The notes: generated from the letters alone by a model not told the origin. A DNA stretch of 64,000 bases from an uncultured Poribacteria bacterium (GCA_951813565.1 OX638351.1:4992001-5056000); one strand, 5' to 3'; shown: positions 15,356-27,954, numbered from the stretch's first letter. Program-made: numbers and translations.

Positions 15356-17773
15356 ATGACAACCGAAGCCGAAGCACGTCAAATCATAGATAGCATGCTG
15401 GAAGAGTCTGGATGGCAGATTCAAAATTATGCTGAACGTGCAACAGATGCTTCTCTTGGTGTTGCTGTCCGTGAATATCCGTTAAGGTTTAATCAGAGAG
15501 CAGATTACCTTCTCTTTATCGGTGGCGTGGCAGTTGGCGTTATAGAAGCCAAATCAGAAGGAACAACACTTAGTGGAGCCCTCCAACAAGCAGAACGGTA
15601 TCGAGCAAATTTGCCAAATGATTTGCCCAACCGCACCAGATTTTTCTATTCTTATGCGTCAACAGGGATTGAGACATACTTTCGTGATTTTCGAGACCCG
15701 GATTCACGTTCTCGACAAGTCTTTATATTTCATACACCTCAAGCACTTTTTAATGCTTTCAATCAACCTCAAACGTTGCGAGAGAGACTCAAAACAGGGA
15801 TGCTGCCATTAAAAAAAGACAACTTGAGAGTTTGTCAATTTGAGGCGATAAGGCAGCTTGAGAGATCTTTGGCAGAAGCACGTCAGCGTGCTTTAATTCA
15901 GATGGCAACAGGCAGCGGAAAAACTTATGTCGCTGTCAGCAGTGTATACCGACTCATCAAATTTGCTAACGTCAAACGGGTTATTTTTCTGGTAGACCGT
16001 AACAATCTCGGTAGACAAGCTCTGCGTGAGTTTCAAAATTACACGACTCCCGATGATGGCAGGAAATTTACTGAACTCTACAACGTTCAACACCTTTCCA
16101 GCAATGTTATTGACGAAACAAGCTCGGTTTGTATTACCACTATCCAACGTCTTTACGCAATGTTGACAGGTGAACCCGACTATGAATCGGACGATGAGGA
16201 AAGTTCCGATTTTGAACAGGAAACTGAAGATTCACCTCCACAAGAAGTTGTCTATAATCCGAACATTCCTATTGATACGTTTGACCTTATCATCGTTGAT
16301 GAATGTCACCGCTCTATCTACGGTAAGTGGCGGCACGTATTAGAATACTTTGACGCTTTCATTCTCGGTCTCACTGCTACGCCATATAACCAAACGCTCA
16401 ATTTTTTCAATCAGAATCTTGTTTATGAATACCGTCACGAACAGGCTATTCAAGACGATGTAAATGTCGGTTATTATGTCTATCGGATTAAGACTGAAAT
16501 TACAGAAAGTGGTAGCACAGTTGCGGAGGGGAGTTATGTTGCAAGACGGGATAGGGTTAGTCGAAGACTTACCTGGGAGGAGTTGGATGAAGATGAAGAA
16601 TACACAGGAAATCAGTTAGACCGGGAGGTTGTGGCAGAAGACCAGATTCGGACAGTTATTCAGACTTTCAAGGATAAACTCAGGACAGAACTCTTTCCGA
16701 GTAGGACGATTGTTCCCAAAACACTTATCTTTGCAAAAGACGACTCGCATGCCGAGGATATTGTCAAAATTGTTCGGGAGGTATTTGCCAAAGGCGATGA
16801 TTTCTGCCAAAAGATTACCTACCAGAGCGATAGACCGGAAGACCTTATCAGAAGATTCCGCACAGACCCGATTTTCCGAATCGCTGTGAGCGTTGATATG
16901 ATTTCTACTGGCACCGATATTAAACCGCTTGAGTGTTTAGTCTTTATGCGTTCTGTCCGTTCAAGCGGGTATTTTGAGCAGATGAAGGGGCGCGGTATGC
17001 GTACTATTAAACCTGAAGATTTGCGATCTGTCACAGGTGATGCGACTGCAAAAACGCACTTCATTATTGTTGATGCTGTCGGTGTGTGTGAATCCATCAA
17101 AACTGATTCCCAGTCACGTCCAGGTGAGCCATCTTCTAATGGATCAAACGGACCACCAGAAAGAAACCCCGACCAACTCATGGATGATGTAAGCATAGAC
17201 CGTGTTATTGAAACCGGGTTTGAGCCTGAAAGTTTTGCACAAGCATCTACAGTGATCCACGACTTCAAGCGGTTTATTAATGAACACATAGCTGAATTGC
17301 CAGCGTTACAAATTTTGTGTGAACGTCCAGAAGCACAAGGCACACTGACTGAAAACAACTTAAAAGAGCTGGAAGAAGCATTGCAACAGCATTCCAGCAG
17401 TCTCAGTCGTGAGTCATTATGGATGGCTTATAAAAGACGGTCACCAGAGAACGTTCATGGAACCACAAAACGACGGACAGACCTTATATCACTGGTGCGT
17501 TTTGCCATGGGGTATACTCGTATTTTAGAACCGTTTAGTGCAATCGTCACCCGACATTTTGGAGAATGGTTAGAGGGTAAAGATTTCACACCAGAACAAG
17601 TCAACTGGCTTGAATGGATTCAGGAATACATTGCCACATCACTCGGTTTTCGAATAACTGATTTTGAGTACACACCTTTTGCACAGCGTGGCGGTGTAGC
17701 AAGAGCCATGCAACTCTTTGGTGATGAGTTGGAGGATATGCTAAAAGATCTTACAGAGAAATTGGTTTCTTAA
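15356..17773 (+). CDS. hsdR: Type I restriction enzyme R subunit
   Basis: Nuclease motif ADY...VIEAK, QMATGSGKT, LVDRNNL, DECHRS, GLTATP, QMKGRGMR, EcoEI_R_C-like C-terminus. Confidence 0.92.
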   Translation: MTTEAEARQIIDSMLEESGWQIQNYAERATDASLGVAVREYPLRFNQRADYLLFIGGVAVGVIEAKSEGTTLSGALQQAERYRANLPNDLPNRTRFFYSYASTGIETYFRDFRDPDSRSRQVFIFHTPQALFNAFNQPQTLRERLKTGMLPLKKDNLRVCQFEAIRQLERSLAEARQRALIQMATGSGKTYVAVSSVYRLIKFANVKRVIFLVDRNNLGRQALREFQNYTTPDDGRKFTELYNVQHLSSNVIDETSSVCITTIQRLYAMLTGEPDYESDDEESSDFEQETEDSPPQEVVYNPNIPIDTFDLIIVDECHRSIYGKWRHVLEYFDAFILGLTATPYNQTLNFFNQNLVYEYRHEQAIQDDVNVGYYVYRIKTEITESGSTVAEGSYVARRDRVSRRLTWEELDEDEEYTGNQLDREVVAEDQIRTVIQTFKDKLRTELFPSRTIVPKTLIFAKDDSHAEDIVKIVREVFAKGDDFCQKITYQSDRPEDLIRRFRTDPIFRIAVSVDMISTGTDIKPLECLVFMRSVRSSGYFEQMKGRGMRTIKPEDLRSVTGDATAKTHFIIVDAVGVCESIKTDSQSRPGEPSSNGSNGPPERNPDQLMDDVSIDRVIETGFEPESFAQASTVIHDFKRFINEHIAELPALQILCERPEAQGTLTENNLKELEEALQQHSSSLSRESLWMAYKRRSPENVHGTTKRRTDLISLVRFAMGYTRILEPFSAIVTRHFGEWLEGKDFTPEQVNWLEWIQEYIATSLGFRITDFEYTPFAQRGGVARAMQLFGDELEDMLKDLTEKLVS

Positions 17774-17912: not shown

Positions 17913-20900
17913 ATGCCAACACCAACACCAAAAGAGGTTTTTGATAATCCTTTACAATATCTTAATTTCCTACAATCCGACAAATTTGAAGGGCAATATT
18001 TCGAGCGGAATGAGGTCCGGCTTGAGAAAAACCAGATTAATGTGTTGAAAGATAGCATTAAGCCTTGTCTATCTGCATTCGCAAATACAAACAAAGAGGG
18101 AGGATTAGTTGTCCTGGGTATTGCTAACGACGGTACTATCAAAGGGATTCAGCACGTTGATGAACAGAAACTTAACGAAATATTGCAAGTTAGAGAATCT
18201 TTAAAAAACCACGTGACGGATCCAAAACATGTCAGTCTGCAAGATCCTAATAAGAACCAATTATATCTTTTATATACACATGAGACACCAAATGCAATTT
18301 GTGAAACAACAGGAGTTTTTCCAAAAGCTTGGAAAAGAGTTGGACCTCAGAATCGTCCTATGACTGAACAAGAACGGGATCAGTTAAAACGGAACAAAAA
18401 AATAGTTGATTTTGAGAACACCTATTGCTGTCCGCACGATCCTAATGAACTTGACGAAGGAGTGGTTGAAGAATTTAAGAAGGCTTTTCTTGAAGAGAGA
18501 GGTGCCCAGTACGGTCATAGCACCGAAGAAGTTCTATACCAAGCAGGTGCACTCATTAAAACGGAAGAAAATGGAAAATATGTGATTAACAATGCTGGTT
18601 ATCTATTTTTTTCCTCAAACCCTCGCAAGCGTTTTGGAAGCGCATTCGTAAGGTTACTACGTTATGATGTCCGCGCTGAAGAGTTAAGAAACCGTGGCGG
18701 AATGACTTTAGATAAAGATTTTGACGGTCCTCTTCCAAACATTATTCGTGGCCTTCGGAGCTTTTTAAAAGATTCCGCACTTTTTCGGATTTTGTCAAAA
18801 CGGAATCCTGATGGTGGATTCACTGATGAACCCGAATTTCCTTTCATAGCAGTTGATGAAGCACTCGTTAACGCCATTGTACATAGAGAATATGCTGTTA
18901 CTACACCAATTTTCTGTATTGTTTATAGAGATAAATTGGAAGTTAGAAATCCAGGAGACATACCACAGTCTGTTCCTAAGAAATTTAGTCTTGATGAACA
19001 AAGCTTAGACCCTGTGCCTCGGAATCCGAAAATTGTTGAGTGGATGCGTATCATGAAAGATGAGAGAGGTTCCATTTTTGTTCATGGATTGAGTGAAGGT
19101 ACTAGACGAATGAAGGAAGAGATGGAAAATTTGGGATTACCGGCTCCACACTATCATACAGATCAATACACAACCGTCACACTCTACAGTAAATTTGATG
19201 AACGCTTGGAAAAGTATACTCTAAAAACGGTCACTGAAACACAAGAATATGCTAATCTTTTTCCAATTGAACAGTCAAGAGAAAGAATGTCACGAAGCGA
19301 ATTTATAGAAGTTCGTGGAAATATACTCACAGCGATTAAAGACGCGCTCTTAAACCACGGATGGTTTATAGACCGTTTTTCATTTGGTCGCATCGTTGCC
19401 CATCGACAAGGTACATCCTTGTCCCTATCTCCTCAAGTTAAAGCTGTTGTACAAATATATCCAGCGTATGAATTACAAATTAGACAGTACGCTGAAGATC
19501 TCTATCTATGTGTTGATTACAAAGCTGAGTTGAAAAATATTCTGAAAGTAGGCTCTTTGCTTGATTACTTTACTGTTGATGATTTAGTTGGTAAACATGC
19601 TGTGGCAAAATACTCTGGACAATGGGAACGCGGAGAAATCTTAGAAATCGACTCGGAAACTACTAAATTAGCATTGTCTGATTTAGACACGGAAGTGAAT
19701 ATTCCAAATAATGATGTTATTCCATCCATTGGGAAAACTGCAATTAAAAAGATTTTGACAAAGAAAAACATAGCTCACGATCTTGATCAAAAAATTAAGG
19801 AACACGCTTTAGTGTCGCAGAGGAATGCTGCTAAAACCCGCGCTGAAAAAACTATCAGGATCGTTCAACATCTTGCCGATGAAGTGTTCCCTATTACAGT
19901 CAACAACTTAACACTTAAGTTGTCTAAAATCCCAGCTTCTCTAAAAACACCTCTATCTGGAGGTTCCTCGCAAGATGTTAAGCCTCTCACTGTGTTTCAT
20001 GAATCCGAGGAACCTTCAGTTCAATTCTATAATGACAAGGTTGATGCCAACATATTAGAAGGATTAACAAAATATAGTTCTTACGATGCAGGTATAAAAG
20101 ATATTGAGTTAATCCCTATTTGTACTCCGGATCTACGTGGGGGGATGCGGCAGCTAATTGAGAGACTTAAACATGGAAAATACAAATATCGCGGTACTGA
20201 ATGGACTTTTAAGACAAAGCTAACTTATCCTAATGTCAACCCAGCACCTATAGAAGAATTTCAAAGTGAATGTGTTCGATTATTAGAAGAGAATCCTAAT
20301 TGGATAGGAAACAAAGATTTGAATCGGCTTTTCCTTGTGTATGTTCCAGAAGACAGGTTCCCAATCACCGATCTCAATTCTCCATACTACACAATTAAGG
20401 AATTTCTGTTATCTAAAGGAATTCCTGTCCAAATGGTGGACACGCCTATTCTTAAGAATCCTGATTGGAAGGATTTCAATCTTGCTTTGAACATCACTGC
20501 GAAATGCGGTGTCGTCCCTTGGGTTTTACCAGGCGCATTACCAGATGCTGATTTCTTTGTTGGTTTGTCATATACCCAACATCCTGATAGGAAAATAGAC
20601 AGACACATGGCGTTTGCTAATGTGTTCAGTAATTTTGGACGCTGGAAATTCTACCAAGGAAATGCTAAACCGTTTAATTATGATGAGAGACACGAATACT
20701 ACAAAGTACTCGTCCGATCAACGTTGGAAAGGCTTGACCTTCGCGAATCTCCATCAATACATTTTCACTACTCAGCGAAGTTTTCTGCGGAAGACATATC
20801 TGCAATTTTGGAAGCTGCAAAATTAGTTCGCCCGAATGGTAGATATACATTTGTATGGATAAATAGTTCACATATCGTTCGGTTTTACGATCCATCTCCA

Positions 20901-21254
20901 CAAACAGATGGAAGTTTACAACGTGGTAAATACGTGATTGGCTGGCCTAAACAATTCTATTTATCAACTACTGGCTATAATACTTACCATAAGTCACTTG
21001 GCACTCCCCATCCTCTTGAAGTTAATGTATGGACTGAACCTTACGATCCCTCAAATCCACCGGATCTGAGAGTTGTTGCCAAGCAATTAATCTCTCTGAC
21101 AAAGTTGAATTGGGCATCAACCCGTTCATTTTGTGGCACGCCTATCACCATAAAATACGCACGTGACATTGCCCGTTTTGCATCGGCGTTTATTGAGCGT
21201 AGCGGAAAGTTTGAACTACATGAAGTCTTGGAGAAAACCCCATGGTTCATCTAA
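17913..21254 (+). CDS. Schlafen/AlbA_2 - HATPase_c_4 (GHKL) - long prokaryotic Argonaute fusion, PIWI catalytically inactive
   Basis: N-terminal EGQYFER...SAFANTNKEGGLVVLGIANDG (AlbA_2). Middle EALVNAIVHREY...EVRNPG...RNPKI...EGTRRM (HATPase_c_4). Ago part: EEPSVQF, GLTKYSSYD, MID YYTIK...GIPVQMV...NITAKCGVVPW, PIWI FVGLSY, LTKLNW, PITIKYAR, C-terminal PWFI. RBS GAGAGG before ATG. Confidence 0.88.
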   Translation: MPTPTPKEVFDNPLQYLNFLQSDKFEGQYFERNEVRLEKNQINVLKDSIKPCLSAFANTNKEGGLVVLGIANDGTIKGIQHVDEQKLNEILQVRESLKNHVTDPKHVSLQDPNKNQLYLLYTHETPNAICETTGVFPKAWKRVGPQNRPMTEQERDQLKRNKKIVDFENTYCCPHDPNELDEGVVEEFKKAFLEERGAQYGHSTEEVLYQAGALIKTEENGKYVINNAGYLFFSSNPRKRFGSAFVRLLRYDVRAEELRNRGGMTLDKDFDGPLPNIIRGLRSFLKDSALFRILSKRNPDGGFTDEPEFPFIAVDEALVNAIVHREYAVTTPIFCIVYRDKLEVRNPGDIPQSVPKKFSLDEQSLDPVPRNPKIVEWMRIMKDERGSIFVHGLSEGTRRMKEEMENLGLPAPHYHTDQYTTVTLYSKFDERLEKYTLKTVTETQEYANLFPIEQSRERMSRSEFIEVRGNILTAIKDALLNHGWFIDRFSFGRIVAHRQGTSLSLSPQVKAVVQIYPAYELQIRQYAEDLYLCVDYKAELKNILKVGSLLDYFTVDDLVGKHAVAKYSGQWERGEILEIDSETTKLALSDLDTEVNIPNNDVIPSIGKTAIKKILTKKNIAHDLDQKIKEHALVSQRNAAKTRAEKTIRIVQHLADEVFPITVNNLTLKLSKIPASLKTPLSGGSSQDVKPLTVFHESEEPSVQFYNDKVDANILEGLTKYSSYDAGIKDIELIPICTPDLRGGMRQLIERLKHGKYKYRGTEWTFKTKLTYPNVNPAPIEEFQSECVRLLEENPNWIGNKDLNRLFLVYVPEDRFPITDLNSPYYTIKEFLLSKGIPVQMVDTPILKNPDWKDFNLALNITAKCGVVPWVLPGALPDADFFVGLSYTQHPDRKIDRHMAFANVFSNFGRWKFYQGNAKPFNYDERHEYYKVLVRSTLERLDLRESPSIHFHYSAKFSAEDISAILEAAKLVRPNGRYTFVWINSSHIVRFYDPSPQTDGSLQRGKYVIGWPKQFYLSTTGYNTYHKSLGTPHPLEVNVWTEPYDPSNPPDLRVVAKQLISLTKLNWASTRSFCGTPITIKYARDIARFASAFIERSGKFELHEVLEKTPWFI

Positions 21255-22681
21255 CTCCAATTTCTGGTGATTTGCCAAAAGGGTGGGTGTGGACAACATT
21301 AGAAGAAATTGGTGAAATCATATTAGGGCAATCCCCTCCGTCTTCTACCTACAATACAGATGGAGACGGACTCCCTTTTTATCAAGGTAAACTTGAATTC
21401 GGGAAACTCTATCCTGCACCTCGAAAATGGTGTACCGCTCCGAAGAAAATTGCTGAAAAAGGGGACGTTTTCATTTCTATTCGCGCGCCTGTAGGACCTA
21501 CAAATATTTGCCCCGAAAAATCTGCTGTGGGAAGAGGACTCGCAGCAATTCGCGGGTTAGGCGGAATTGAGTCGTTTTTCATTCTTTATTTAATGCATGC
21601 CTATGCAAATAAGATTGCAAGCAGAGGAACGGGGACAACTTTTGATGCAATTACGGGAAACCAACTTAAGACATTTGAAATCCCACTTCCACCACTGACA
21701 GAACAACGCCGCATCGTAGCCAAGTTAGAGATACTATTTACACATTTAGACGCAGCAGTTGAAAACCTCAAAAAAGCACAAGTGCAGTTGCAGCGGTATC
21801 GTCAATCAGTTCTCAAAGCTGCTTTTGAAGGGGAGTTGACGAGGGAGTGGCGAGAAGGGTATTCGGGTGAATTAGAACCGATGTCGGTTTCAGAAGTTTC
21901 TGAGATGGACAATTTACCTGAGCTGCCTGATGGTTGGGTGTGGACGAAGGTTAAGGACATTTCAGAATTTATTCGCGGTGTGTCCTATAAAAAGAATCAA
22001 TCATCTAAAACCCCAATAGATGATTATGTTCCTATATTGCGGGCGAACAATATCAATACACAATTGAACTATGAAGACCTTGTTTATGTTCAGCGAGAAA
22101 AGGTTAAAGATGAACAATTTGTAAAGATTTATGATATTATCATCGCGATGTCGAGTGGTAGTAAACACCTCGTAGGTAAAGCAGCGCAAGCTTATCAGGA
22201 TTTTGAAGGGGGTTTTGGCACTTTTTGTGGGTTGGTCAGAGTTTCGGAAGAAGTAAATAAAAAATTCATTGGTTTATTTTTCCAAAGTCCTGTTTATAGA
22301 AATGAAATATCTCGTCTCTCTATTGGAATAAACATCAATAACCTTCGGAGAGAAAACATAGAGACAATGCTTATACCGCTTCCACCGCTTGCCGAACAGG
22401 AACAGATTGTCTCTGAACTTGAGCGGCACCTTTCAGTCGCTGATGCGGCAGAGGCAACCCTTGATGCCGCACTGAAGCGCGCGGAACGTTTGCGGCAGTC
22501 TATCCTCAAACATGCGTTTTCTGGTAAACTTGTTCCGCAAGACCCGAACGATGAACCGGCAAGCGTGTTGCTTGAGAAAATCAGAGATGAGAAAGATCAG
22601 CAACAACCAAAGCGAAAAAAGACTACAACAAAATCGAAAAACACATCTTCGGCACAGCAATTGTCCCTTCCACTTGACTAA
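21242..22681 (+). CDS. hsdS: Type I restriction-modification specificity subunit
   Basis: Two TRDs each preceded by LPxGWVWT and followed by IPLPPLxEQ; RQSxLKxAFxG; QDPNDEPASVLLEKI. Confidence 0.93.
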   Translation: MVHLTPISGDLPKGWVWTTLEEIGEIILGQSPPSSTYNTDGDGLPFYQGKLEFGKLYPAPRKWCTAPKKIAEKGDVFISIRAPVGPTNICPEKSAVGRGLAAIRGLGGIESFFILYLMHAYANKIASRGTGTTFDAITGNQLKTFEIPLPPLTEQRRIVAKLEILFTHLDAAVENLKKAQVQLQRYRQSVLKAAFEGELTREWREGYSGELEPMSVSEVSEMDNLPELPDGWVWTKVKDISEFIRGVSYKKNQSSKTPIDDYVPILRANNINTQLNYEDLVYVQREKVKDEQFVKIYDIIIAMSSGSKHLVGKAAQAYQDFEGGFGTFCGLVRVSEEVNKKFIGLFFQSPVYRNEISRLSIGININNLRRENIETMLIPLPPLAEQEQIVSELERHLSVADAAEATLDAALKRAERLRQSILKHAFSGKLVPQDPNDEPASVLLEKIRDEKDQQQPKRKKTTTKSKNTSSAQQLSLPLD

Positions 22682-22800: not shown

Positions 22801-23085
22801 ATGACACTTAAGATTACAGACTGCACGGATAGAGATGAAAAAACGCGGGAGACCGATCCGCTTCTCGCATTAGCAGGTACGCTTAAATGGAATAATATAA
22901 GTGGCCCCAACGCCGTATTGATACCGGAAATACTCGTGATTAAAGGCGCACACGAAGATCACCCGGATCCGCTCATCGCCTTGCTGGGAACGTTGGAATG
23001 TGATGTCACAGACATCGGCGAACGTCACGATGATTATATCAGAGACGCACTTTTAGCAGAATTATGGGGAAATGAAGATGAATGA
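22801..23085 (+). CDS. Small hypothetical protein with internal repeat, antitoxin-like
   Basis: DPLLALAGTL / DPLIALLGTL repeat; DIGERHDDYI tail; putative promoter TTGTTT-17-TAAAAT at 22702-22730. Confidence 0.55.
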   Translation: MTLKITDCTDRDEKTRETDPLLALAGTLKWNNISGPNAVLIPEILVIKGAHEDHPDPLIALLGTLECDVTDIGERHDDYIRDALLAELWGNEDE

Positions 23086-23119
23086 GGAACTTACCTTAAA
23101 CTTGCGTAGGTGAAATAAT

Positions 23120-23533
23120 ATGAAAACTGAAGAAAAAGAACATAATCTCCCTCTACCGCCAGCAGATAAAACACTATTTCGCAAACAAGTGCAGCGCGAA
23201 TTAGACGAAATTCGACAAGAAGCTGAGGAGGCTTATACCTTGGATAACGAGATTGATCCTGTGCCGGATTCGGCTTACAATGACACGCTTGTTTTGTTAA
23301 AGTTCCTTTGTAATTACAATCTGCCCATGCCAGATTTTAGTTGGGCAGAAGATGGTAGCCTTAGTGTTGGGTGGTACCCAGATAATGGCATGGTAACAAT
23401 GGGAATATATGGGGACAATCTTGTCATCTATAATGCATTTTTTGAAGAAAAACGTCAATTTGAAGGAATCTGTGAACTGTCAGATACCGCGGTGTTGTCA
23501 GGTTTTCTCACAACGTTGGCAAATATCCTCTAA
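23120..23533 (+). CDS. Acidic hypothetical protein (module gene A, copy 1)
   Basis: Paralog of 26521-26919 and 27120-27539 (PxxAYN, PMP, EDGxxxxxW, GICxLS). Confidence 0.75.
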   Translation: MKTEEKEHNLPLPPADKTLFRKQVQRELDEIRQEAEEAYTLDNEIDPVPDSAYNDTLVLLKFLCNYNLPMPDFSWAEDGSLSVGWYPDNGMVTMGIYGDNLVIYNAFFEEKRQFEGICELSDTAVLSGFLTTLANIL

Positions 23534-23547
23534 TAAGGATTGTTGTT

Positions 23548-23967
23548 ATGAATGTTTCACCGGGTGAGACACTCACTCGTTTTATTCGTTATAACAGTCA
23601 TTTTTCCGTTGTAACTAACAGAGTTAAACCTGACGCTTTTCTTCCACACAGAAAGCGTATTGATGTATCCGTGTTTCGCATTTCCGAACTCAATGACAGT
23701 GAAAAACTCTCAGAAAACGAGATATGGCAAATTGGGCGGGAATATGTTCAAACAGAAGAAAGACTGATAAAGGCAAGGGCTGATCTTTTGGCTGCCGTTG
23801 TTTATCAGAATAATCTTGAAGTTGTTCCAGATGAGCCGCCTCAAAGGCACGCGAACATAACGCCTTTTCCGATAGAGAAAAGTCCTACAGACAGGAAAGC
23901 ACGTAGATCCATCGCAACGAAACTTGCTAACGCAAGTAAATTAGCTGTTCAACCAGAAAAGATATGA
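23548..23967 (+). CDS. Hypothetical protein (module gene B, copy 1), possible ART-like fold
   Basis: Paralog of 27550-27954; conserved RFI, AFxP, SVF, EIWxIGR, KARADL, HANIT. Confidence 0.75.
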   Translation: MNVSPGETLTRFIRYNSHFSVVTNRVKPDAFLPHRKRIDVSVFRISELNDSEKLSENEIWQIGREYVQTEERLIKARADLLAAVVYQNNLEVVPDEPPQRHANITPFPIEKSPTDRKARRSIATKLANASKLAVQPEKI

Positions 23968-23996: not shown

Positions 23997-25463
23997 ATGT
24001 CCAACGAATCCACAACAATCGTTCAAAAACTATGGAATTTCTGCAATGTGCTCCGAGATGATGGGGTCAGTTACGGAGATTACGTGGAGCAACTCACGTA
24101 TCTGCTTTTTCTCAAACTCGCTGATGAACAGCGCAACCTACCTACTAACACATCAACTCAAATCCCTGCTGGTTTGGATTGGGAAAGTTTACTCAAAGAG
24201 AGTGGTGCTGCGTTAGAAGAGCAGTATGTTAAAACCCTTCGTGAATTGAGTAATGAGAAAGGGTTGCTTGGTGTTATTTTTAGAAAATCGCAAAACCGCA
24301 TTCAGACACCCGCGCACCTCCAACGACTTATCAAGCTTATTGATGCCGAAAACTGGAGCGGAATGGCAGCCGATGTCAAAGGCACAATTTACGAGGGACT
24401 TTTACAGAAAAACGCTGAAGACACCAAAAGCGGTGCAGGGCAGTACTTCACACCTCGTCCACTCATCAAAGCGATAGTAGCTGTAATGCAACCTAAACCG
24501 ATGAAAACGATCTGCGATCCTGCATGCGGCACAGGCGGTTTTTTCCTCGCTGCTTATGAGTATATATCCGAAACATATCGCACAACATTAACTCGTGAAC
24601 AGAAGAAGTTCCTCAGATTTGATACTTTCGCCGGAACAGACATCGTTGATAACGTAGTCCGTCTCTGTGTTATGAATCTATATCTGCACGGTATTGATGG
24701 GGAGGAAAGTCCAATTACAACCAACGATAGTCTCGGCAAAGATCCGGGAGAACGTTACGATATGGTGCTGACCAATCCACCGTTTGGTAACAAGAGTAGT
24801 GTTACAATCACTACTGATGGCGAAAAACGTAGCAACGCATCCGTCACGTATGAACGCGATGATTTTTGGGCGACAACTTCAAATAAACAGTTTAACTTCC
24901 TACAGCACATTAAGACAATTTTGAAGGAAAATGGTCGCGCCGCTGTGGTACTACCTGATAACGTTCTCTTTGAACGTGGCGCGGGTGAAACAATTCGCAG
25001 GCAACTGCTAAAACTGTTTGATGTCCATACCTTGTTACGATTGCCTACTGGTATTTTCTACGCGCAAGGTGTAAAGGCAAACGTTCTCTTTTTCGACAAA
25101 CGTCCGGCACGTGAGGAACCGTGGACACAAAAACTTTGGATATACGATCTCCGTACAAATAAACGTTTTACGCTTAAGACGAATCCCTTACGCGATGCCG
25201 ACCTACAGGATTTTATTACTGCCTATAATCCAAAGAACCGTCACGAACGGGTTGAAACTGAACGTTTTCACGCCTTCACTTACGAGGAACTTACCAAGCG
25301 GGAACATGTTAACCTTGATATTTTCTGGTTGAAAGAGGATTCACTTGAAGATATAGCAGACCTTCCCACGCCTGATGTATTAGCGGGGGAAATCACACAG
25401 AATTTAGAGACTGCTTTGGGATTGTTTCAGAATATTCAGACAGAATTAGGTGACAGTGACTAA
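23997..25463 (+). CDS. hsdM: Type I restriction-modification N6-adenine methyltransferase subunit
   Basis: KLWNFCNVLRDDG, GQYFTPR, DPACGTGGF (motif I), TNPPF (motif IV), LRLPTGIFY. Confidence 0.95.
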   Translation: MSNESTTIVQKLWNFCNVLRDDGVSYGDYVEQLTYLLFLKLADEQRNLPTNTSTQIPAGLDWESLLKESGAALEEQYVKTLRELSNEKGLLGVIFRKSQNRIQTPAHLQRLIKLIDAENWSGMAADVKGTIYEGLLQKNAEDTKSGAGQYFTPRPLIKAIVAVMQPKPMKTICDPACGTGGFFLAAYEYISETYRTTLTREQKKFLRFDTFAGTDIVDNVVRLCVMNLYLHGIDGEESPITTNDSLGKDPGERYDMVLTNPPFGNKSSVTITTDGEKRSNASVTYERDDFWATTSNKQFNFLQHIKTILKENGRAAVVLPDNVLFERGAGETIRRQLLKLFDVHTLLRLPTGIFYAQGVKANVLFFDKRPAREEPWTQKLWIYDLRTNKRFTLKTNPLRDADLQDFITAYNPKNRHERVETERFHAFTYEELTKREHVNLDIFWLKEDSLEDIADLPTPDVLAGEITQNLETALGLFQNIQTELGDSD

Positions 25464-26432: not shown

Positions 26433-26520
26433 TCGGTCTATGTGTTCTAAATAAGCAGTCGCGTCTTCATCTGGTAGAGACATTGAGGCGCGCCTGCATA
26501 GTAATAGGTTGGTAAAAATT

Positions 26521-26919
26521 ATGCAATTACATCTTGAGATGCCGCAGGCAGATGAGGGGACGTTCCGATATAGTATCAAACGCGAATTAGCGGAACTATA
26601 TAAAAAAGAAGATGGAGTGTATGCAAAGGATAGCATAATTGATGCTATGCCTGAGTCAGCATATAATGATGCCCTCTTTTTGCTTGAGTTTCTTTTTAAT
26701 TCGGGTGTTCCTATGCCAAACATCAATCGGACAAAACACGGTAGCCTCAGCTTAAGTTGGTATCCTGAAGAAGGTACAGCGAAGATGGAACTCTGTGGTG
26801 ATGGACTTGTTGTCTATAATGCATTTTTCGATGAAGATCGTCAGGATGAAGGTGCTTGTGTTTTGACAGATATTGCTGCGCTGGATGAACTTCTTGGCGC
26901 GTTGCGCTGCGTTTTTTGA
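26521..26919 (+). CDS. Acidic hypothetical protein (module gene A, solo copy)
   Basis: PESAYNDAL...PMPN...GSLSLSWYP...YNAFFDE, paralog of 23120-23533; start uncertain. Confidence 0.65.
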   Translation: MQLHLEMPQADEGTFRYSIKRELAELYKKEDGVYAKDSIIDAMPESAYNDALFLLEFLFNSGVPMPNINRTKHGSLSLSWYPEEGTAKMELCGDGLVVYNAFFDEDRQDEGACVLTDIAALDELLGALRCVF

Positions 26920-27119: not shown

Positions 27120-27539
27120 ATGGATACCTCACACTCACAAAAAGAACCTGATTTTGCTCGGTCCCCTGCTGACAAGATACTGTTTCTAAAACATGTCCAA
27201 AGCGAATTAGGCGAAATTCGTGAGGAAGTTGAAGAAACTTGTGCAGTGACTACCGACGTTATACCTGTACCGGAACAGGCTTATAATAATACATTATCTT
27301 TGATGGAACAGATGCCCGATGACATACCGATGCCAGACATGATGTGGTTGGAAGATGGTGGTATTGGATTAGAATGGAGGCCAGGAGAAGGTATCGCAAC
27401 AATAAGTCTATACGGTGACGGAAACGTTATTTACGGTATTTTTTTTAGTGATAAGTGTGAGACTAGTGGAATCTGTGCCTTGTCAAACTATGCACTTCTC
27501 CATGGATTTCTTACGACGTTAAGCCTACTCTTTCAATAA
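27120..27539 (+). CDS. Acidic hypothetical protein (module gene A, copy 2)
   Basis: PADKxLF..VQ.EL.EIR, PVPEQAYN, PMPD, EDGGIGLEW. Confidence 0.75.
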   Translation: MDTSHSQKEPDFARSPADKILFLKHVQSELGEIREEVEETCAVTTDVIPVPEQAYNNTLSLMEQMPDDIPMPDMMWLEDGGIGLEWRPGEGIATISLYGDGNVIYGIFFSDKCETSGICALSNYALLHGFLTTLSLLFQ

Positions 27540-27549
27540 AGGATACGGT

Positions 27550-27954
27550 ATGGATTTATCGAGAGGCGATATTCTTAGTCGCTTCATTTTTTCTAAAAGA
27601 CACTTTTCAATAGAAAATTCGACTGTCAAATATGGAGCATTTATTCCGCCTCCAAATAGTGCTGATTTATCTGTGTTTTCTGTTTCATCCCTTACTAACA
27701 GCGAAATATGGGAAATCGGACGTAAATATGTCCAAACGAATGAAAGAAAACTAAAGGCAAGAGCCGATCTTCCTGTTGAAAAAGTTTATGCTGTTAATCT
27801 AAAAGTTGTCCCAGATACTCAACCTCACGAACTACATGCCAATATCACATCTTTTCCATTAGACAAGAGGGAGCGTACTGATCTTGCAAGAAAACTTGCA
27901 GTCGTTAGTAGGTTGGAAATTATACCACCTGAAGATACTGATTCTGATCGTTAA
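27550..27954 (+). CDS. Hypothetical protein (module gene B, copy 2)
   Basis: Paralog of 23548-23967, in the same order behind gene A. Confidence 0.75.
   Translation: MDLSRGDILSRFIFSKRHFSIENSTVKYGAFIPPPNSADLSVFSVSSLTNSEIWEIGRKYVQTNERKLKARADLPVEKVYAVNLKVVPDTQPHELHANITSFPLDKRERTDLARKLAVVSRLEIIPPEDTDSDR

Follow-up and report, generated by a model that had tools for sequence, protein, structure and literature searches.

A Schlafen-Argonaute fusion with an Asn-substituted nuclease motif inside a type I restriction-modification operon of an uncultured Poribacteria bacterium

The window, the 64,000-nucleotide stretch of DNA from an uncultured Poribacteria bacterium analysed here, carries between hsdR and hsdS of a type I restriction-modification (RM) operon a gene whose product is a fusion of a Schlafen domain, a GHKL ATPase and a long-B Argonaute core (SLFN-pAgo). 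An earlier sequence-only reading of the same DNA had described the fusion; the type I RM genes on either side of it were not mentioned there. GC content was 39% in the gene versus 42-45% around it. The features are as follows.

15356..17773, plus strand: hsdR, type I restriction subunit, with recognisable nuclease, Walker A and DECH motifs (Pfam, PADLOC, NCBIfam)
17913..21254, plus strand: SLFN-pAgo gene, a single uninterrupted ORF of 1113 aa from ATG (Pfam, PADLOC, AlphaFold, Foldseek, VIA)
17913..18392, plus strand: Schlafen (AlbA_2) domain, aa 1-160 (Pfam; VIA matches)
17988..18011, plus strand: nuclease motif E26-x4-E31-R-N33 (motif search, homologue alignment)
18072-18086, plus strand: SAFAN box, aa 54-58 (motif search)
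18393..19202, plus strand: GHKL/HATPase_c_4 domain, about aa 161-430 (Pfam, homologue conservation)
19230..20072, plus strand: Argonaute core L1, PAZ and L2, about aa 440-720 (secondary structure, fold matches, preprint cited below)
20082..20528, plus strand: MID domain (homologue conservation, TtAgo mapping)
20529..21251, plus strand: PIWI domain lacking the catalytic tetrad (TtAgo mapping, spacing comparison)
20921..21122, plus strand: tract of about 200 bp holding all 45 differences from the near-identical strain L161 (strain comparison)
21242..22681, plus strand: hsdS, specificity subunit, its start overlapping the final 13 nt of the SLFN-pAgo gene (Pfam, PADLOC)
22801..23967, plus strand: three small ORFs inside the RM operon (94, 137 and 139 aa), family unnamed
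23997..25463, plus strand: hsdM, type I methyltransferase (Pfam, PADLOC)
26509-26919, 27120-27539 and 27550-27954: paralogues of the small ORFs

The two N-terminal domains proposed in the sequence-only reading on the basis of AlbA_2-like and HATPase_c_4 motifs both scored above the Pfam cut-offs (SLFN_AlbA_2 over aa 44-151, E 5e-10; HATPase_c_4 over aa 334-423, E 4e-10), and every motif that it had quoted was present. The motifs lie at aa 26-33 (EGQYFERN), 54 (SAFAN), 69 (GIAND), 315 (DEALVNA), 825 (YYTIK), 838 (PVQM), 861 (ITAK), 884 (GLSY), 951 (FHYSA) and 1082 (YARD), with a Gly/hydrophobic core, GGLVVLGI, at aa 63-70. The PADLOC full-length pAgo model covered aa 4-1113 with 1474 bits. An AlphaFold2 model of the 1113-aa protein, for which a 108-sequence alignment served as input (pLDDT 86.5), contains a MID-PIWI fold, its top fold match being RsAgo (Foldseek E 1.4e-29; by VIA, Z 30.7, rmsd 5.0 and 610 aligned residues for aa 443-1113). 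VIA on this model also matched the Schlafen domain to SLFN11, SLFN12 and SLFN5 (Z about 10) and aa 3-431 to the Schlafen-ATPase protein DIP2311 (3lmm; Z 22, rmsd 14.9, 368 aligned). Against PDB sequences, the Schlafen domain alone gave a weak match to SLFN5 (E 0.16), and the best PDB profile match was EcAgo 23wq (E 4e-20). The sequence-only reading had assigned a long pAgo with an N/L1/PAZ-like region, of which the long pAgo, L1 and PAZ were retained and the N domain was not: because only about 105 aa separate the ATPase from PAZ in the model, in which 610 of the 758 RsAgo residues aligned, and the preprint finds none in SLFN-pAgos, a canonical N domain is probably absent from the Argonaute core. 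In this the protein would be unlike RsAgo and EcAgo, with which it shares an inactive PIWI and a YK-type MID; these two also lack a Schlafen-ATPase fusion, the EcAgo-type effector being a separate protein (10.64898/2026.05.29.728809).

Schlafen-fused long-B pAgos were noted already in 2018 (10.1101/366930), and a preprint by Kuzmenko et al. (bioRxiv 10.64898/2026.05.29.728809) has since defined the SLFN-pAgo family, which lies in the long-B clade and comprises 78 proteins with lengths of 1071-1187 aa. This preprint was the only report on SLFN-pAgo, or on Poribacteria and Argonaute together, found in our literature search. According to the preprint text covered, its model member, RzAgo of Runella zeae, uses 5'-A RNA guides against DNA targets, has no N domain, is induced by guide to form inactive filaments which target DNA dissolves, tetramerises on ATP independently of guide, cuts tRNA and protects against phage (10.64898/2026.05.29.728809). 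The single-chain long-B sensor-effector proposed from sequence is thus supported and was already published as SLFN-pAgo, whereas the ATP-dependent signal transfer proposed with it does not agree with what that text describes for RzAgo, where ATP drives tetramerisation irrespective of guide and it is target DNA that dissolves the filaments. The window protein resembles RzAgo in domain order, with SLFN (PF04326) at the N-terminus followed by GHKL (PF13749) and a PAZ-MID-PIWI core, in its length within the family range, in its SAFAN box, in having no PIWI tetrad, in the ATPase E/N pair and in the MID Y/K pair (RzAgo Y828/K832 for Y825/K829), and the type I RM Poribacteria operon and the exchange of a 'Schlatpase' module are likewise described in the preprint text; it differs in its motif, Ex4ExN here versus Ex4(D/E)xK there. 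Architecture and mechanism are already published, and, but for the incomplete nuclease motif, the protein is well supported as a member of the SLFN-pAgo family. Among named relatives the nearest to the gene are Ca. Poribacteria records (up to 85% identity), with full-length homologues at 37-58% identity from many phyla; RzAgo itself was absent from the PDB sequences searched and was not recognisable among the named homologues.

The placement of the gene in its operon recurs among relatives. A match at E <= 1e-20 was found in 54 of the 112 family genomes, its own among them, and in ten of these it ran over the full length; in 32 of 56 loci from relatives the homologue either sat in the hsdR-hsdS interval or was joined to HsdS. 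This slot held a fusion alone in 3 of the 32 loci, a tandem in 3, an Ago-less protein in 20 and an HsdS-fused form in 6; in the tandems (3/56 loci) a short Schlafen-ATPase lies directly upstream of the fusion. The chromosomal site was the same in 38/56 loci. Only reference-matched genes entered the scoring of gene order, several loci are cut off by the end of a contig, and related genomes do not count as independent. In a close relative, L033, the fusion is present without RM genes. Type I RM genes also accompany the Poribacteria SLFN-pAgo described in the preprint, which adds two homologous operons whose Schlafen-ATPase is either free-standing or joined to HsdS, and which reports no conserved partner of SLFN-pAgo in the text covered (10.64898/2026.05.29.728809). 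The small ORFs of the operon gave blank Pfam and NCBIfam searches and fell into Atlas clusters of hypothetical proteins; against PADLOC PDC-M32A/B only weak matches were obtained, for 2/10 proteins and 1/8 homologues. A promoter/terminator scan stayed at chance level (23 found versus 22.6 expected), and no convincing repeats flanked the cassette. In the gene's own genome (95% complete, one contig) no close Schlafen-ATPase was found elsewhere, the five other Schlafen matches all being distant and the two of these with an ATPase match about 25% identical. The Ago part matched only this locus by tblastn, and Pfam Piwi had no match in that genome, not even the SLFN-pAgo gene itself; the Pfam search therefore cannot exclude a second divergent Argonaute.

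The residues expected to sense guide and bind ATP were invariant among homologues with a residue at the position: E316 (18858) and N320 (18870) of the ATPase in 118/118, and Y825, K829, Q840 and K864 of the MID pocket in 117/117 each. By motif and spacing E316/N320 correspond to RzAgo E314/N318. In an alignment to TtAgo fetched from its plasmid, TtAgo K422/Q433/K457 fell on K829/Q840/K864, which bears out the 5'-phosphate-binding pocket read as intact from sequence. Y828, K832 and Y1086 of a named Bacteroidota homologue fall in the columns of Y825, K829 and Y1082, and Y1082, assigned by spacing, is the likely counterpart of the RzAgo 5'-A contact Y1086. For PIWI the TtAgo catalytic numbering was used, its residues verified in the fetched sequence: D478, D546 and D660 aligned with S886, S954 and R1084, and E512 with about E925. 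The catalytic positions are substituted as the sequence-only reading had said, and the DEDX tetrad of long-A slicer pAgos was not found in PIWI by this alignment. The predicted protein thus combines intact sensor and ATPase residues with a PIWI that appears unable to slice.

The departure from the family lies in the Schlafen domain, where codon 18009-18011 is AAT (Asn) and the family residue is Lys (K33N). The motif reads E26-E31-N33, with both metal-binding carboxylates present, in place of the complete E(x)4(D/E)xK motif; as judged from the alignment, this bears on whether the site is an active Schlafen site and not on descent from the SLFN-pAgo family. Among 119 aligned homologues (120 listed minus the 99% identical P0002), 115 had a residue at position 33, Lys in 111 and Asn in 4. 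Lys was found in 89/89 other Schlafen domains of the fetched loci, in all three tandem fusions and in 96 of the 98 distant representatives (of 132) that cover the motif, with Asn in none. The 96 shorter proteins gave 89 Lys, 1 Met, 3 without motif coverage and 3 ERN, the last being P0122 (a 604-aa partial fusion) and the apparently Ago-less P0124 and P0125; these homologue, locus, distant and short-protein sets overlap. The Asn allele thus occurs also in seven other proteins with domains otherwise intact, and all eight have E, not D, at position 31. ERK without Asn is common (65/96 short proteins), so E31 needs no Asn partner.

The doubt that the sequence-only reading had cast on the Schlafen nuclease rested on ERN and on GIAND, and only the former was borne out. 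Columns 72 and 73, which follow G-I-x in GIAND, vary from one homologue to another (D in 26/116 and 38/116, respectively), and thus only ERN is a real departure. The Asp at this position is dispensable in RzAgo, whose D72A mutant protects better than wild type (10.64898/2026.05.29.728809), and in SLFN11 (PMC9482658), as the texts covered report; GIAND as a catalytic defect was ruled out by the D72A protection and the variable column. A sequencing error or recent pseudogene as the source of K33N was likewise ruled out, by the same Asn codon in L161, by the X4 contig, which spans the gene and differs from it by just 42 letters and 2 gaps, in agreement with the PIWI tract, and by the intact domain. 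The L161 and X4 data may have a common source; X1 shows no difference and may itself be where the window comes from.

K33N replaces a residue that related enzymes need, and the killing step may for that reason be weakened or switched off. In the texts covered, SLFN11 K216A is inactive (PMC9482658), as is CbCash K24A, in which the spacing E-x4-D-x-K is that of SLFN-pAgo (PMC13462974), and Ex4(E/D)xK is general among bacterial Schlafens (PMC13056530). SLFN11, CbCash and RorSlfn5 share with the window protein the Schlafen fold and the E-x4-(D/E) carboxylates, but they keep the essential Lys and are coupled to other sensors (a helicase, the cA4-binding Csx15 and an Ig-like domain). We found no report of a Lys-to-Asn mutant in the Schlafen literature covered and no RzAgo Lys mutant in the preprint text covered. 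On this evidence we lean towards weak or absent tRNA cleavage by the Asn allele.

We consider it possible, if rather doubtful, that the SLFN-pAgo is instead fully active, with K33N tolerated because the pocket is reshaped, for example by D31E or by an Arg close by, or with its tRNA specificity shifted. The Schlafen domain is under purifying selection (dN/dS 0.14 versus the nearest Lys allele, other domains 0.08-0.15), K33N and D31E are its sole departures among 43 well-conserved columns, and in each of the five full-length proteins with Asn 40-41 of the remaining 41 are conserved. The allele also persists in proteins 79-92% identical, in fused and short forms; its presence in the short, apparently Ago-less P0124 and P0125 would be odd if it were dead, and E at position 31 in all eight Asn proteins could be taken as compensation. 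Against full activity stand the Lys-to-Ala mutants of SLFN11 and CbCash, the frequency of ERK without Asn, and the window's branch, on which 5.5 nonsynonymous to 6.5 synonymous changes, versus 2.5 to 14.5 on the sister branch, give on small counts a hint of relaxation.

An improbable reading is that of a dead effector together with an Argonaute core that acts without it, by binding invader DNA to block transcription or help HsdR, the Schlafen domain serving as a tetramer scaffold. Such a role would accommodate the intact sensor and ATPase residues and the 13-nt overlap with hsdS, and would explain Schlafen conservation, since this domain forms about 60% of the RzAgo inter-dimer interface (10.64898/2026.05.29.728809). 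However, the same text reports protection severely diminished in the nuclease-dead RzAgo D32A (E314A impairs it too), and neither the lack of a conserved partner in the preprint nor the L033 fusion without RM genes favours a tie to HsdR. We judge it very unlikely that in a mixed oligomer the Asn protomer would be the half that binds RNA, with a Lys-type Schlafen-ATPase catalysing in trans, since, although inactive SLFN11 E214A stimulates wild type in the text covered (PMC9482658) and three loci have the tandem arrangement, the tandem fusions all have Lys and the window's own genome holds no close Schlafen-ATPase.

Identity to relatives jumps along the gene: at G065 an Ago-less protein is 83% identical in the Schlafen domain and the adjoining fusion 55-57%, and the Ago-less P0123 is 95% identical over aa 4-60, yet has Lys. 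A quick method was used to build trees from 78 rows chosen by hand, of which 38 were fused proteins, 22 came from the loci and 18 were taken from the 96 short proteins; database proteins were labelled from length only, so that P0204/P0205 may be truncated fusions. On these rows the Ago/non-Ago label changed 16 times on the Schlafen tree, 7 of the changes being forced by starred branches, versus twice on the GHKL C-half tree; because of this difference the exchanged unit is placed below the whole Schlafen-ATPase module and would often consist of the Schlafen domain plus no more than the first part of the ATPase. In the C-half tree, one group nested among fusions took in 29 of the 31 Ago-less rows (support 84, not starred), which, with the root set by two fused outgroups only, suggests that Ago-less forms arose by Argonaute loss. 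The 20921-21122 tract is a short recombination patch between two strains, and short-tract recombination of this kind can explain the scattered Asn allele, which required 3 changes on a 73-row tree (p-AU 0.051 for one clade, not rejected) and 4 on the 78-row tree. The K33N allele, the tandem arrangement and domain-level swapping were not found in the literature searched; the preprint text covered mentions neither a tandem Schlatpase and SLFN-pAgo nor Schlafen swapping apart from the ATPase C-half, and its figures may show them (10.64898/2026.05.29.728809).

We slightly favour a model in which the SLFN-pAgo is a back-up module in the type I RM operon that carries a detuned effector. Based on RzAgo, the MID pocket would load 5'-phosphorylated guide RNAs some 21 nt long, probably with 5'-A, and the guide-loaded protein would assemble into inactive filaments, which complementary single-stranded invader DNA would dissolve; ATP-bound GHKL domains would then keep together a tetramer whose paired Schlafen domains cut tRNA, so that the infection aborts. 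We infer guide loading, filament lock, target release and the ATP tetramer for the window protein via its conserved residues. Weak or no tRNA cleavage by the Asn allele would lower self-toxicity, and the effector setting could be changed by recombination with Lys-type alleles and with the Ago-less Schlafen-ATPases of the same slot. PrrC is an anticodon nuclease encoded inside a type I RM operon and kept inactive by the RM complex. As in the model above, a back-up effector that cuts tRNA is encoded there among hsd genes, but the sensor here would be a guide-loaded Argonaute, and any coupling to RM is putative.

A broader and more tentative proposal, to which we give a minority chance, is that allele swapping allows Poribacteria to adjust a suicide nuclease triggered by guides: a naturally disarmed or weakened Ex4ExN allele would circulate by short-tract recombination among Ago-fused, stand-alone and HsdS-fused forms in one slot, with tandem copies as donors and Ago-less forms generated by Argonaute loss. 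With this natural active-site variant the role of the catalytic Lys of Schlafen can be tested cleanly in SLFN-pAgo, and the well-sampled locus resolves exchange of the effector domain below the level of the entire Schlafen-ATPase module. Should the Asn allele have little nuclease activity and still be maintained, it would illustrate how the cost of abortive-infection effectors is kept down in cells or, alternatively, would point to a nuclease-independent role of the Argonaute beside type I RM.

Three Ago-less Schlafen-ATPases (at loci L182, L187 and L189) were found to carry Lys or Gly in place of the first Glu of the Schlafen nuclease motif while keeping its ERK ending, and this loss is, after the Asn allele, a second type of alteration to the nuclease site at this locus. 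In the PIWI domain, aa 1084 and 1088 of the window's SLFN-pAgo (approximately nt 21162-21176) were Arg in the poribacterial lineage and Gly and Tyr in most of the family; Arg at these positions might affect guide or target contacts. Besides this gene, the window's own genome has five Schlafen matches, and two of these (G000:C1:3670873 and 971474) contain internal stop codons.

The full SLFN-pAgo was immediately preceded by a short Schlafen-ATPase (423-431 aa) at three relatives' loci, L034, L035 and L036 (genomes G089, G094 and G065 respectively). Contigs of equal size, the sole basis in this case, suggest four further tandem pairs among the database homologues (P0173/P0021, P0175/P0028, P0180/P0029 and P0181/P0026). 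A second, more distant SLFN-pAgo lineage (approximately 46-49% identity) was present in relatives at L037, L038, L039, L192 and L193, with another type I RM set, or fragments of one, as its neighbours, and at L040 (genome G033) a SLFN-pAgo of this lineage was split into several ORFs, with DNA insertions. A full-length homologue of 1138 aa, with 61% MID-PIWI identity, was located on a Rubrobacter radiotolerans plasmid (L206:3640-7056), where it adjoins a toxin-antitoxin pair and a Tn3 transposase.

Within the RM operon and downstream of it, members of two unnamed small protein families (approximately 137 and 139 aa) are found in pairs that recur, with multiple copies per locus, in the following parts of the window:

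23120-23967
26509-26919
27120-27954

Such pairs were also present at many of the relatives' loci. Both families gave weak PADLOC matches to PDC-M32A/B, and the pairs may be toxin-antitoxin-like or defence cargo.
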